Shown here: piece after piece, positions 28,945 to 57,108 of the stretch
Numbering within the stretch: the stretch's first letter is position 1
Layout: every line of letters begins with the position of its first letter
DNA from: Escherichia coli
Lineage (GTDB): Bacteria > Pseudomonadota > Gammaproteobacteria > Enterobacterales > Enterobacteriaceae
Assembly (NCBI RefSeq): GCF_024298765.1
Contig: NZ_CP101210.1
DNA length: 64,000 bases
Strand: one strand, 5' to 3'
Notes under the pieces: generated by a model
Told to the model about the DNA's origin: nothing
What the model saw: only the letters and a program-made list of their open reading frames with translations
The model's database searches: none
Made by a program: the position numbers and the translations under genes

Positions 28945-30093
28945 TTACTTAGCGGTTTTACGGTACTGCTCAATTAACTCGATAAAGTGGTCAAACAACG
29001 GCGCGGCGTCGTGTGGACCAGGGCTGGCTTCCGGGTGTCCCTGGAAGCTGAACGCCGGTTTATCGGTACGATGAATGCCCTGTAACGTACCGTCGAACAG
29101 GGATTTATGTGTGACACGCAGGTTTGCAGGTAATGTTGCTTCATCCACCGCAAAACCGTGGTTCTGGGCGGTAATCATCACCACATTTTTCTCAACATCT
29201 TTAACCGGATGGTTGCCGCCGTGGTGACCAAATTTCATTTTTACAGTCTTCGCACCGCTCGCCAGCGCCAGCAGCTGATGACCGAGGCAGATGCCGAATA
29301 CCGGAATATCGGTTTCGAGGAATTTCTGGATGGCGGTAATGGCGTAATCGCACGGGGCCGGGTCGCCAGGACCGTTGGAGAGGAAGATGCCGTCCGGATT
29401 CATTTTCAGCACATCTTCCGCAGAAGTTTGTGCCGGAACGATGGTCAGGCGACAACCTCTATCCACCAGCATCCGCAGGATGTTGCGCTTGGCACCAAAA
29501 TCATAAGCCACGACGTGGAACGGCAGCTCGTCTTCTTTTTTCGCTTCTGGCAGGCCGCCGGTCAGCGTCCAGCTCCCTTGTGTCCAGCTATAGGGTTCTG
29601 CGGTAGTCACTTCTTTTGCCAGATCCATGCCATTCAGGCCAGGGAACGCGCGGGCTTTTTCTAACGCCAGCGCCGCATCCGGGTTGTCACCCGCAATAAT
29701 GCAGCCATTCTGTGCGCCTTTCTCGCGCAGTAAACGCGTCAGCTTACGGGTATCGATATCGGCAATCGCCACGATGTTATGGCGCTTCAGGTAAGAAGAG
29801 AGGTCTTCGGTATTACGGAAGTTGCTGGCAATCAGCGGCAGGTCGCGAATCACCAGACCTTGGGCATGTACCTGAGAAGATTCTTCATCGGCGTCATTAG
29901 TGCCGACATTGCCAATATGGGGATAAGTAAGAGTAACGATTTGACGAGAATAGGAAGGATCAGTGAGGATTTCTTGATAACCGGTCATTGAAGTATTGAA
30001 AACGACTTCCCCAACCGCCGAACCTGTTGCCCCTATGGCCCGACCGTGAAACTGGGTTCCGTCTTCCAGAACCAATAGCGCTGACTTAATCAA
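28945..30093 (-). CDS. carA: Carbamoyl-phosphate synthase small (glutaminase) subunit
   Basis: 382 aa from a TTG start at 30093 ([12 protein letters not shown]) preceded by GGAGG; the ORF track extends further upstream. Confidence 0.9.
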
Positions 30094-30105
30094 AACACCC
30101 TCCAG

Positions 30106-30143
30106 AGAATATTCACTCACTTTATTTGCATATTAATTCACAA
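30106..30143 (-). promoter_or_regulatory. carAB P2 operator: tandem ARG boxes (ArgR binding)
   Basis: Minus-strand sequence TGAATTAATATGCAAATAAAGTGAGTGAATATTC matches the ARG-box pattern just upstream of carA. Confidence 0.65.
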
Positions 30144-30472
30144 TGATGACGTAAATCAATGCAAATCTGCTTACCGACGAATTTCTGGCAAACGGCGGCA
30201 TTCTGGAGATATGGGAGCTAAAAGTCAACTTAATGGCGGGATTTTTTATATTATTTTGTGGCTCATGCATGTTTTACAGGCATTAAGCGGCAAAAAGATC
30301 ATATAACATGTTCTGGAAAACGCTTGCGCAGCAAGAAGATTGCATGAAATCAAAATGAGCAGAAAAAAGTGGACCAAATGGTCAAAATTTACATTAAAAC
30401 AACAAAAACAGAATACAAAACATGTAATTTTCAGCACTTGCATTAAATTTAAAAGAATAACACCAAAAATAA

Positions 30473-30500
30473 AAGGGCTAAAAATTAAAGCCCTTTATAA
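30473..30500 (-). terminator. Rho-independent terminator downstream of dapB
   Basis: Hairpin AAGGGCTTTAATTTTTAGCCCTT followed by a T-run on the minus strand. Confidence 0.55.
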
Positions 30501-30548
30501 TCAAAAAATTAAATGTGTTATTTTTGCATCATCACAAACATTTTGTGG

Positions 30549-31385
<837 letters not shown>

Positions 31386-41157: not shown

Positions 41158-41639
41158 TTTTTATTTCTCTTTCAGGTGAATAGATCGTTTTTACTATCTT
41201 ACCCCGCACGAATCATCGTTAAAATCAGATTATAGTGTAGGAATAATTCGCTTTTTACGAGGCATTGAAAGATTTGCGTCATCAGTGATGATATGAGTTT
41301 TTGACGGCTGTAAGCGCTGACGTGTGACCCTAAGCCCTGATAATCATAGCTTAAGGTAAGGATTTCTGAGGGATTAATTGGGAAAAGTAATAATTAATTT
41401 GTTGTCAGTCGGCGATGTTTGTTAGGCCAATACTTCAAAAATAATCCAGTTTGTCGTCAATAATTGCGATGAAGAGATAAATTAAAGTTAAATAATTAAA
41501 TCATTAAAAAATTACGCCATAAAAATGCGAGGCGTCTTCAGGATTAGAATCGATAAAACAGAATGGGTTAAAGAGAGCGATATAATAGCGGCGGGTGCTT
41601 GAGGCTGTCTGTCTCAGGCATTAGCTGAACGGCAGATAG

Positions 41640-41694
41640 AGAAAAGCCCCGAGTGATATTTTACTATCAACCCGAGGCCCCCTATATGCAGAAC
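41640..41694 (-). ncRNA. sokC: sokC antisense RNA (position inferred from K-12 annotation relative to mokC)
   Basis: Placed by synteny opposite the mokC 5' end; boundaries not verifiable from sequence alone. Confidence 0.35.
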
Positions 41695-41895
41695 ACATGT
41701 AGAGTGCCTCTTACTGACCGTAAGGTCAAGGAGAAGAGAGCAATGAAGCAGCATAAGGCGATGATTGTCGCCCTGATCGTCATCTGTATCACCGCCGTAG
41801 TAGCGGCGCTGGTAACGAGAAAAGACCTCTGTGAGGTTCACATCCGAACTGGCCAGACGGAGGTTGCTGTTTTCACGGCTTACGAATCCGAGTAA
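41686..41895 (+). CDS. mokC: MokC, overlapping reading frame that couples hokC translation
   Basis: ATG at 41686 (MQNTCRVPLTDRKVKEKRA) reading through into the hokC frame. Confidence 0.7.
   Translation: MQNTCRVPLTDRKVKEKRAMKQHKAMIVALIVICITAVVAALVTRKDLCEVHIRTGQTEVAVFTAYESE
41743..41895 (+). CDS. hokC: Hok-family type I toxin HokC (Gef)
   Basis: 50-aa ORF MKQHKAMIVALIVICITAVVAALVTRKDLCEVHIRTGQTEVAVFTAYESE. Confidence 0.88.
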   Translation: MKQHKAMIVALIVICITAVVAALVTRKDLCEVHIRTGQTEVAVFTAYESE

Positions 41896-43129: not shown

Positions 43130-43217
43130 CTTTTTTAAATTGCCCCTAGATGAATGCACGGGCGGAGAGGAAATACCCCTTCGCCCGTGTCAGTATAATT
43201 ACCCGTTTATAGGGCGA

Positions 43218-51619: not shown

Positions 51620-51760
51620 AGCCAATGCCGGATGCGGCGTGAACGCCTTATCCGGCCTACAAAAGCATGCAGATTCAATATATTGCAGAATTAACGTAGG
51701 CCTGATAAGACGCGCCAGCGTCGCATCAGGCGCTGAATGCCGGATTGTTACCCGGCATTT
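51620..51760. repeat. REP element cluster between convergent yaaA and yaaX
   Basis: GCCGGATGCGGCGTGAACGCCTTATCCGGCCTAC and GTAGGCCTGATAAGACGCGCCAGCGTCGCATCAGGC. Confidence 0.65.
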
Positions 51761-56983: not shown

Positions 56984-57021
56984 CGAAAAAAAAGCCCGCA
57001 CTGTCAGGTGCGGGCTTTTTT
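56984..57021 (-). terminator. thr attenuator (leader terminator hairpin)
   Basis: Minus strand AAAAAAGCCCGCACCTGACAGTGCGGGCTTTTTTTT between thrL and thrA. Confidence 0.85.
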
Positions 57022-57039
57022 CTGTGTTTCCTGTACGCG

Positions 57040-57108
<69 letters not shown>

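Follow-up and report, generated by a model that had tools for sequence, protein, structure and literature searches.

The carAB locus and its control region

The window, a 64,000-nt (64-kb) stretch of Escherichia coli DNA, carries dapB, carA and carB in that order on its minus strand, as judged from open reading frames and annotation. The control region sits between dapB and carA-carB, on the same strand and 5′ of carA, in an intergenic spacer of 455 bp (30094..30548; the dapB stop codon is 30551..30549); a dapB-like ORF also lies upstream of carA in related loci. The CarA protein scores 508.6 bits against the TIGR01368 profile (cut-off 307.35), covering profile positions 1-360 of 361, and is 99.7% identical to PDB CarA chains. 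The features of the locus are collected in Table 1.

The control region is present in 5425 of 5426 complete E. coli genomes. The proximal 155 bp of the spacer match K-12 MG1655 exactly, while the distal 313 bp differ by about 20 substitutions (93.6% identity), which leave the RUT box, PUR box and GATC site untouched; a single-nucleotide difference from K-12, T for G at 30216, lies in the P1 spacer. Judged by its sequence, the locus is thus an allele of the K-12 carAB control region and not a separate system. The K-12 region was described by Piette et al. 1984 and Bouvier et al. 1984, as reviewed in PMC6245113. Protein binding, repression and transcript starts at the present locus are transferred from this K-12 literature and would be expected to correspond to it.

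The initial annotation had likened the spacer to the known dual-promoter carAB region, and alignment with K-12 bears this out, with every published site in place: P1, P2, the ARG boxes, GGAGG, TTG, GATC, the PUR and RUT boxes and the IHF zone all occur at the same distances. It had further described the roughly 400 bp towards dapB as strongly AT-rich control DNA. The composition holds (33% G+C), but the region is not control DNA throughout, as the distal approximately 85 bp are dapB 3′ UTR and terminator. More precisely, G+C is 0.327 in the spacer (distal 0.298, proximal 0.385), compared with 0.519 in the window and 0.53 in carA and dapB, and the lowest value among 100-nt windows is 0.24. The region almost certainly represents carAB control, with tandem promoters P1 and P2, an ArgR operator on P2 and a TTG start for carA. 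The description of carA as starting at a TTG, preceded by a strong ribosome-binding site and an operator with two arginine-repressor boxes, is correct, ordinary and already known.

Table 1. Features of the carA control region, in window coordinates
Feature	Position	Strand	Basis and remarks
carA CDS	28945..30093	−	Small subunit of glutamine-hydrolysing carbamoyl-phosphate synthase; 382 codons and a stop
TTG initiation codon of carA	30093..30091	−	Annotation, alignment, codon periodicity, literature
Shine-Dalgarno GGAGG	30103..30099	−	5 nt before TTG
In-frame GTG, rejected alternative start	30120..30118	−	No SD within 20 nt; inside ARG box 2, P2 +7
ARG box 2, AGTGAGTGAATATTCTCT	30121..30104	−	15/18 to consensus
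ARG box 1, TGTGAATTAATATGCAAA	30142..30125	−	17/18 to consensus
Promoter P2	30126..30159	−	Start A at 30126; hexamers inferred
Rfam RF02750, ES003 sRNA	30193..30141	−	87.4 bits (gathering threshold 37), full length
Promoter P1	30188..30228	−	Promoter scan; coordinates mapped; start G 30193
Dam site GATC	30300..30297	−	A at P1 −106, as published
PUR box, GCGCAAGCGTTTTCCA	30329..30314	−	Centre P1 −128.5, as published; invariant in 6 E. coli strains
RUT box, TTGACCATTTGGTCCA	30385..30370	−	P1 −192..−177; consensus and position published
Predicted PepA-wrapped zone (hexameric PepA)	30473..30253	−	P1 −280..−60, published coordinates transferred
Predicted IHF-binding zone	30517..30480	−	P1 −324..−287, published coordinates mapped
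dapB 3′ UTR and terminator hairpin	30548..30465	−	Sequence; positional counterpart of DapZ

Promoter P1, its upstream sites and its leader

Promoter P1 consists of a −35 hexamer TTGACT (30228..30223), a 17-nt gap and a −10 hexamer CAGAAT (30205..30200), followed by a GC-rich discriminator, GCCGCC (30199..30194). Its start G lies 100 nt upstream of the TTG codon, and the initially transcribed sequence is GTTTGC (30193..30188). The arrangement of −10 hexamer, discriminator and T3 tract is recognisable in 79 of the 80 loci that we compared (this locus and 79 other species of Enterobacterales and Vibrionales). The predicted IHF zone includes, on the plus strand, AATCAAAAAATTA, which we take to match the IHF consensus WATCAANNNNTTR. 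When the coordinates are anchored on the P1 start, all published carAB sites match the window sequence where they are predicted to lie. The RUT box is invariant in 5 of 6 aligned E. coli strains, the exception being FDAARGOS_1276, in which one of the two central bases, both degenerate in the consensus, is replaced, and it is found with at most 2 mismatches in 34 of the 80 loci. The T3 tract at P1 is needed for UTP-sensitive reiterative transcription (PMC6245113).

The first part of the P1 transcript is also catalogued as a small RNA, ES003, whose family matches here at full length. This element corresponds to P1 +1..+53, with its 3′ end 2 nt inside ARG box 1. Its source coordinates in K-12 are 29551-29603, and the RNA-seq-defined 5′ end, 29551, is the P1 start. 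We judge it unlikely that these 53 nt constitute an independent small-RNA gene rather than part of the leader made from carAB P1. Such a gene would be in keeping with the curated Rfam family and the 87-bit match, with the 7 non-Escherichia loci that also exceed the ES003 threshold, and with the observations of Rau et al., the source of ES003, that coverage falls sharply past the element and that it undergoes 133-fold growth-phase regulation. However, its 5′ end is exactly the P1 start, the ES003 promoter is carAB P1, a stringently controlled P1 would itself give growth-phase regulation, and carA is nowhere mentioned in the paper of Rau et al. The element lacks a terminator, and as a structured RNA we reject it: its fold is no better than those of shuffled sequences (z = −0.47), covariation for the Rfam structure across 24 species is 0.148 compared with 0.145 in shuffles, and no ES003 consensus structure survives among 34 Enterobacterales. 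The accessible text of the supplements to an E. coli 3′-end atlas (PMC7815308) holds nothing on carA, dapB or K-12 position 29603. What is catalogued as an sRNA is best regarded as the leader of the carAB P1 transcript.

The full E. coli P1 leader is predicted to form a long hairpin in which the P2 −35 region pairs with ARG box 1 (z = −2.98). We likewise rejected this hairpin as a selected RNA structure, as the consensus fold of 34 Enterobacterales reaches −0.88 kcal/mol and has no compensatory pairs, with the proviso that covariation is uninformative here because both arms are invariant DNA sites.

The carA initiation codon

The initial annotation placed the carA start at the TTG codon behind GGAGG, and RefSeq, PDB chains and two reviews agree with it. 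The SD-to-start spacing of 5 nt is inside the 4-9 nt expected for SD-led initiation, and the codons that follow the TTG are ATT AAG TCA GCG CTA TTG GTT CTG GAA GAC. RefSeq places the start at this TTG both in K-12 (b0032) and in the strain that matches the window best, and the resulting 382-aa CarA is found on at least 1000 contigs in the protein collection. The TIGR01368 profile starts 4 residues past the TTG. Alignments with PDB chains 1bxr_B, 1cs0_B and others begin at query residue 10 of the longer ORF product, which is the TTG codon, and these chains begin MIKSALL (the SEQRES records reflect the gene model chosen by the depositors and do not amount to independent sequencing of the protein). 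A paper by Weyens et al., dated 1985 and in Eur J Biochem, is said to deal with N-terminal sequencing of CarA. The carA initiation codon is given as TTG in the Charlier 2018 review (PMC6245113), and likewise in a second review.

The comparison of loci points the same way. TTG occupies the aligned position in 80 of 80 sequences, and SD positions −10..−6 are invariant in 79-80 of them. Split by codon position, identity downstream of the TTG is 0.94/0.96/0.77; upstream it is flat, and codon periodicity sets in at this codon. In a metagenome sample drawn blind to start codons, TTG was found in 20 of 20 lineages whose CarA is at least 70% identical (Shewanella/Parashewanella, Succinivibrionaceae), and a Methylomonas CarA with 69% identity also has a TTG start. 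Down to about 64% identity, TTG is replaced in metagenomic CarA by GUG only and never by AUG; AUG starts are confined in this sample to more distant CarA proteins, whose N-termini differ. The SD is mostly unpaired in the predicted folds of both the P1 and P2 transcripts, and we dropped the idea that its sequestration distinguishes the two mRNAs.

Two other codons could in principle serve as the start. Translation from the upstream in-frame GTG would yield a 391-residue CarA extended by MSEYSLEGV. The upstream frame is open for 13 codons before the TTG and includes this GTG, a mechanical ORF call accordingly gives 391 aa, and many Enterobacteriaceae carry a GTG at the equivalent position; however, the GTG sits in ARG box 2, and the operator thus accounts for its conservation. 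Against a start at this codon, the 20 nt preceding it contain no SD-like sequence, the codon is missing in Kluyvera, Shimwellia, Pluralibacter and others, and in at least 9 species stop codons shut the upstream frame 3-8 codons before the TTG, with indels shifting the frame as well. Furthermore, the stretch from −27 to −1 before the TTG shows no codon periodicity, the PDB chains and the family profile begin at the TTG or later, and a 391-aa CarA has zero records among 15 billion proteins. We thus regard the GTG start as highly improbable and close to refuted: it is contradicted on all counts examined, which leaves the start at TTG where the initial annotation had put it. The accompanying warning that the non-ATG start is easily mis-annotated does not apply to E. 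coli, in which the 391-aa form is absent, but does apply in other lineages, where N-extended variants share clusters.

It is also scarcely credible that the start is the codon after the TTG, ATT (30090..30088), which would produce a CarA beginning MKSALL. This codon lies at an acceptable spacing of 8 nt from GGAGG, AUU is a known rare start codon (infC), and the original 1984 carAB sequence paper reportedly left UUG or AUU open as the start. However, codon 2 varies among relatives (I, N, S, T or K) whereas the TTG is invariant, Ile is residue 2 in the RefSeq and PDB sequences, and the reviews name TTG rather than ATT.

The ArgR operator and promoter P2

The initial annotation had also noted an ARG-box-like tandem directly upstream of the start (a 34-nt string, TGAATTAATATGCAAATAAAGTGAGTGAATATTC, at 30140..30107 on the minus strand), and this proved correct. 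Scored against what we take to be the ARG-box consensus, the two boxes together reach 32/36; they are separated by a 3-bp spacer, TAA, in an 18+3+18 layout. This tandem pair occurs once in 64 kb, and its score was reached in 0 of 300 randomised 64-kb sequences of window composition and in 2 of 300 with the AT-rich composition of the spacer. In nearly all 80 loci, tandem ARG boxes lie at −47..−52 from the TTG, likewise with a 3-bp spacer. According to PMC6245113, carAB P2 has two 18-bp ARG boxes 3 bp apart that are bound by one ArgR hexamer; mutational and footprinting evidence exists for the K-12 operator, whose sequence is identical to that in the window, and arginine-dependent binding of hexameric ArgR is published for the same sequence. 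The reading of the boxes as a chance product of AT-rich DNA, compatible with the lack of enrichment for the single half-site TGAATNNNNATTCA when 2 mismatches are allowed (26 matches in the window, compared with 31.5 expected), has next to no chance of being right and is refuted for practical purposes by the uniqueness of the pair, the randomisations, the letter-for-letter identity with the K-12 operator and the fixed distance to the TTG across two orders.

Promoter P2 was not called by a consensus promoter scan at the carAB region. We placed it by the published P1-P2 start spacing of 67 nt, which puts the predicted start within ARG box 1 and suggests a −35 hexamer TTGATT (30159..30154), a 16-nt spacer and a −10 hexamer ATTAAT (30137..30132). 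The sequence GCATTGATT at P2 is kept across Enterobacterales. With the same spacing, the ARG boxes span about P2 −16..+23. There is a small inconsistency here, as PMC6245113 describes the ARG boxes as overlapping the P2 −35 element.

Proposed control of carAB and comparison with known systems

By analogy with K-12, carA-carB would be transcribed from two tandem sigma-70 promoters. P1 would be under pyrimidine control through the upstream RutR, PurR, PepA and IHF sites, and would also be tuned at its GTTTGC start by reiterative transcription sensitive to UTP, while its GC-rich discriminator is of the type seen under stringent control and may place it there. An arginine-loaded ArgR hexamer on the ARG boxes (30142..30104) would exclude RNA polymerase and switch P2 off. 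As the operator lies on the downstream promoter of the tandem pair, ArgR would block P2 while transcription from P1 reads through. The P1 and P2 mRNAs would share one ribosome-binding site, at which GGAGG would pair with 16S rRNA and bring the TTG at 30093 into the P site, the predicted product being the 382-residue CarA with the N-terminus (f)Met-Ile-Lys-Ser. Cumulative repression by arginine and pyrimidines is expected at this locus by virtue of its sequence identity with K-12.

The carAB region of Salmonella Typhimurium, which was left out of the 80-locus comparison, has tandem promoters and ArgR acting on P2 at two adjacent ARG boxes in common with the window, and shares PepA, IHF and purine effects with E. 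coli, as described in PMC6245113, where Kilstrup et al. 1988 and Lu et al. 1992 are cited for the Salmonella studies. More generally, ArgR operators of the arginine regulon consist of a pair of imperfect 18-bp palindromes with 3 bp (2 bp in some) between them, which overlap the promoter and bind one hexamer. UTP-sensitive reiterative transcription also operates at pyrBI, codBA and upp. P1 has the G followed by three U on which stuttering at carAB depends, and the size of the effect there is smaller, about threefold (PMC6245113). Most relatives outside the Enterobacteriaceae have AATTTG in the P1 start region instead of GTTTG.

A conserved element directly before the carA ribosome-binding site, with a proposed control function, has also been reported in Polynucleobacter as the ‘carA motif’, a riboswitch candidate (PMC8632094, Breaker laboratory). 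That motif is an RNA hairpin from beta-proteobacteria and is associated with a single promoter, whereas the E. coli-type leader has no detectable conserved RNA structure and would be controlled by DNA-binding proteins. We regard it as unrelated to the locus in the window.

Conservation of a weak start codon

As a finding in itself, the TTG start is of small import, since the control region is well mapped and the start codon is already annotated correctly. Its practical value is that of a positive control: working from the raw sequence, the initial annotation correctly picked out a tandem operator and a non-ATG start together with its SD. The deep conservation of the TTG, on the other hand, poses in a clean natural setting the question of why a weak start persists behind a strong SD. 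It is possible, although we lean somewhat against it, that the combination of a weak carA UUG with a strong GGAGG(T) SD at fixed spacing is a selected feature and not an accident of E. coli. If so, purifying selection would have acted against a ‘better’ AUG across hundreds of millions of years, and possible reasons would include capping CarA relative to CarB, or condition-dependent initiation. It would then constitute a layer of carAB control that is not discussed in the accessible, transcription-centred literature.

The AUU of infC and the TTG of carA are alike in being sub-optimal start codons kept over long evolutionary distances. The rare start codon of infC serves as the sensor in an autoregulatory loop, and we know of no such role for the carA UUG.

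The dapB 3′ UTR

The dapB terminator can be read directly from the sequence, with a stem formed by 30496..30490 and 30478..30472 and a T-run after it; it was not called by the terminator scan because its loop is 11 nt. The dapB 3′ UTR of Salmonella encodes the HilD-activated sRNA DapZ, which is not recognisably retained in the window: Rfam RF02551 (DapZ) scores 29.6 bits at 30545..30465, below its gathering score of 56. At the same place in 20 of 20 other Enterobacteriaceae, DapZ scores 68-92 bits. In E. coli, a recognisable DapZ has been lost from the dapB 3′ UTR. Separately, within this species the spacer varies unusually strongly in its distal half, with an intraspecific divergence of 5-10%. 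Together, this loss and the high polymorphism of the distal spacer suggest relaxed or shifting constraint on part of the control region.

The carA locus and its start codon

A 1-kb query spanning the site found matches in 5425 of 5426 complete E. coli genomes, with a top identity of 99.9%, and on this sequence evidence the window is Escherichia coli chromosome. The initial annotation had described a carA gene that begins with TTG behind an ArgR operator, in an AT-rich spacer that was taken to be the known carAB control region (gene-orientation sequence 5′ of carA: ...CATTGTGAATTAATATGCAAATAAAGTGAGTGAATATTCTCTGGAGGGTGTTTTGATTAAGTCAGCG...). All of its coordinates proved correct when the sequence was read again. 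The observation is confirmed, the interpretation is supported, and the control-region biology is already known. The spacer is indeed AT-rich, with a G+C content of 32.7% compared with 51.9% in the window and 53% in the flanking genes.

The assignment of the start to the TTG agrees with several sources. RefSeq gives a 382-codon carA from this codon in both the best-matching strain and K-12, two reviews (one of them PMC2952853) state the same start, every PDB chain of E. coli CarA starts with MIKSALL, as encoded from this codon onwards, and the TIGR01368 profile starts four residues after it. The exact 382-aa protein is found on at least 1000 contigs. We also compared 79 other species (64 Enterobacterales and 15 Vibrionales) independently of their annotation. 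All 79 have TTG at the codon aligned to the E. coli start, and the GGAGG at -10..-6 is unchanged in 79-80 of the 80 sequences. Mean identity per codon position is 0.94/0.96/0.77 after the TTG, as against 0.67/0.65/0.69 before it. Codon 2 is variable among these relatives (I, N, S, T or K), which excludes ATT as a conserved start.

Initiation at the in-frame upstream GTG at 30120, which the initial annotation had named as the finding that would overturn the TTG start, was rejected. There is no Shine-Dalgarno (SD)-like sequence within the 20 nt preceding this GTG, which corresponds to P2 +7 and lies inside ARG box 2. The codon is missing from several genera, at least nine species have stops that shut the frame 3-8 codons 5′ of the TTG, and indels also shift it. 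The 391-aa protein that would result was not found among ~15 billion proteins.

Features of the carAB control region and other Rfam matches in the window
Feature	Position	Strand	Remarks
rihC, dapB, carA, carB		minus	ORFs and RefSeq annotation
carA TTG	30093..30091	minus	
GGAGG (SD)	30103..30099	minus	5 nt ahead of TTG
In-frame upstream GTG	30120..30118	minus	
dapB stop	30551..30549	minus	
ARG box 1		minus	TGTGAATTAATATGCAAA; 17/18 to consensus
ARG box 2		minus	AGTGAGTGAATATTCTCT; 15/18 to consensus; TAA between boxes
P1 initial transcript	P1 +1..+6		GTTTGC
P1 hexamers		minus	TTGACT-17-CAGAAT; also called by promoter scan
P2 start	30126		A; 67 nt 3′ of P1 start
GATC	A at P1 -106		
PUR box	centre at P1 -128.5		
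RUT box	P1 -192..-177		TTGACCATTTGGTCCA
IHF zone	P1 -324..-287		A+T-rich
ES003 (RF02750)	30193..30141	minus	87 bits
naRNA4	901-980	plus	
sok antitoxin	41593-41745	plus	
tpke11	43130-43207	minus	
ES036	51661-51703	plus	38.7 vs threshold 37.6 (marginal)
Threonine operon leader	56985-57104	minus	

The ArgR operator and the tandem promoters

The ArgR operator directly upstream of carA likewise held up: box 1-TAA-box 2 is the sole such tandem within 64 kb. A tandem of equal quality arose in none of 300 randomisations with the composition of the window, and in 2 of 300 when the AT-rich composition of the spacer was used instead. Loose single ARG half-sites occur no more often than chance would give (26 matches in the window, 31.5 expected); the operator signal is the tandem arrangement, not the single half-sites. 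In nearly all of the comparison loci (80 including E. coli), the pair lies 47-52 nt ahead of the TTG.

In PMC2952853, positions -268..-296 relative to ‘the TTG initiation codon’ correspond to -168..-196 relative to the P1 start; this numbering puts P1 +1 100 nt 5′ of the TTG, at 30193. From this anchor, each published element coincides with matching sequence, and a transcript 5′ end from a separate RNA-seq study (K-12 29551) is the same nucleotide as P1 +1. A passage of the 2018 review by Charlier et al. (PMC6245113) has the ARG boxes overlap the -35 element of P2; however, the 67-nt spacing between P1 and P2 puts them at P2 -16..+23. We infer that the P2 -35 element is TTGATT (30159..30154) and the -10 element ATTAAT (30137..30132), which is supported by the conservation of GCATTGATT across Enterobacterales. 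In 79 of 80 loci one can recognise the P1 -10 element, a GC-rich discriminator and a T3 tract behind the start; as far as sequence can tell, the entire tandem-promoter design is conserved.

In the CHARACTERISED region, identity to K-12 MG1655 is complete over the final 155 bp before carA apart from one position, with ~20 differences in the rest of the spacer. The lone proximal difference, 30216 (minus strand, ~-23), lies between the P1 -35 and -10 elements and is T here and in strain 104, but G in K-12.

If the K-12 mechanism applies here, an arginine-loaded ArgR hexamer on both ARG boxes would keep RNA polymerase off P2, and P1-derived polymerase would pass through the occupied operator. P1 would sense pyrimidines and purines via RutR, PurR, PepA wrapping and IHF, and would also be tuned by UTP-dependent stuttering at the T3 tract and by ppGpp; the GC-rich discriminator, GCCGCC, fits a ppGpp response. 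The P1 and P2 mRNAs would share one GGAGG-N5-UUG ribosome site, and predicted folding leaves its SD mostly free in both leaders.

The leader RNA

The match to ES003 corresponds precisely to P1 +1..+53, with its 3′ end 2 nt inside ARG box 1. ES003 was defined by RNA-seq at K-12 29551-29603 in PMC4676190, which does not mention carA and lists its conservation as Escherichia and Shigella only; the threshold of its Rfam model is exceeded in seven other genera. We read ES003 as the 5′ piece of the carAB P1 leader, whose 3′ end may come from an ArgR roadblock or from processing. As a structured RNA it was rejected, with a fold unremarkable against shuffles (z = -0.47), covariation in the Rfam structure at shuffle level (0.148 vs 0.145) and no shared structure found among 34 Enterobacterales.

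At 30125-30165 (minus strand), ATTTGCAT, just 5′ of the P2 -35 element, is complementary to ATGCAAAT, the right half of ARG box 1. For the 140-nt P1 leader of E. coli, folding predicts a long hairpin between the two (z = -2.98). Neither arm varies among Enterobacterales, and covariation therefore says nothing on the importance of the RNA pairing.

The other above-threshold Rfam matches are consistent with a window that covers the beginning of the E. coli chromosome map, read in reverse. No tRNA genes were found across the 64-kb window.

The distal spacer

The ‘control region’ ends distally in ~85 bp of dapB 3′ UTR and terminator. The DapZ model (RF02551) scores 29.6 bits at 30545..30465 (minus strand), under its gathering score of 56, compared with 68-92 bits at the same position in 20 of 20 other Enterobacteriaceae species (at ~750-830 in loci L003-L023). 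In the DapZ alignment, E. coli retains only GTGATG and a re-shaped terminator hairpin, and the conserved TCGTGATGTGGTTATTGCA...TTGATTGCA module appears to have been lost from its dapB 3′ UTR.

Among E. coli genomes, 5229 of 5425 carry the proximal 175 bp (30061-30235) at 99% identity or more. For the distal 313 bp (30236-30548), just 74 of 5424 reach this level, and 3457 are at 90-95%. The substitutions seen among six strains are concentrated in the dapB 3′ UTR, the IHF zone and, with at least three haplotypes, a patch at 30432..30449. None of these strains varies in the PUR box or GATC, and one of the six differs in the RUT box, at a degenerate central position.

Depth of TTG conservation

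Metagenome contigs were scanned with a pattern downstream of the start codon, so that the scan was blind to the start itself, and yielded 96 distinct CarA loci. At 70% or more CarA identity to E. coli, the start is TTG in 20 of 20; at 60-69% it is TTG in three and GTG in four; below 60% it is ATG in 52, GTG in 16 and not callable in one. GTG appears at 65-69% identity, including in Pseudoxanthomonas, and ATG only under ~60%. By cluster name, TTG lineages include Shewanella/Parashewanella, Succinimonas and other Succinivibrionaceae, and Methylomonas (69%). Long-term selection on the UUG start itself is a tentative reading that we consider somewhat doubtful.

The 90%-identity clusters with TTG-start CarA (Shewanella, Succinimonas, Succinivibrionaceae) include versions that are 4-18 residues longer (384, 388, 396 and 399 aa), which come from gene calls of JGI/IMG, ENA and Logan. 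The TTG start has probably led these callers to place the N-terminus too far upstream. The caution that this start is easily mis-annotated is therefore valid beyond E. coli, where automated callers produce such variants, but is not borne out for E. coli, whose 391-aa form is absent from the ~15 billion proteins searched.

CarB large subunits (1073-1075 aa) also appear in the 90% cluster that holds the 382-aa E. coli CarA, and the representative of this cluster is 1074 aa long. As the two subunits share no sequence relationship, this looks like a clustering artefact, for example via a fused or mis-joined record.
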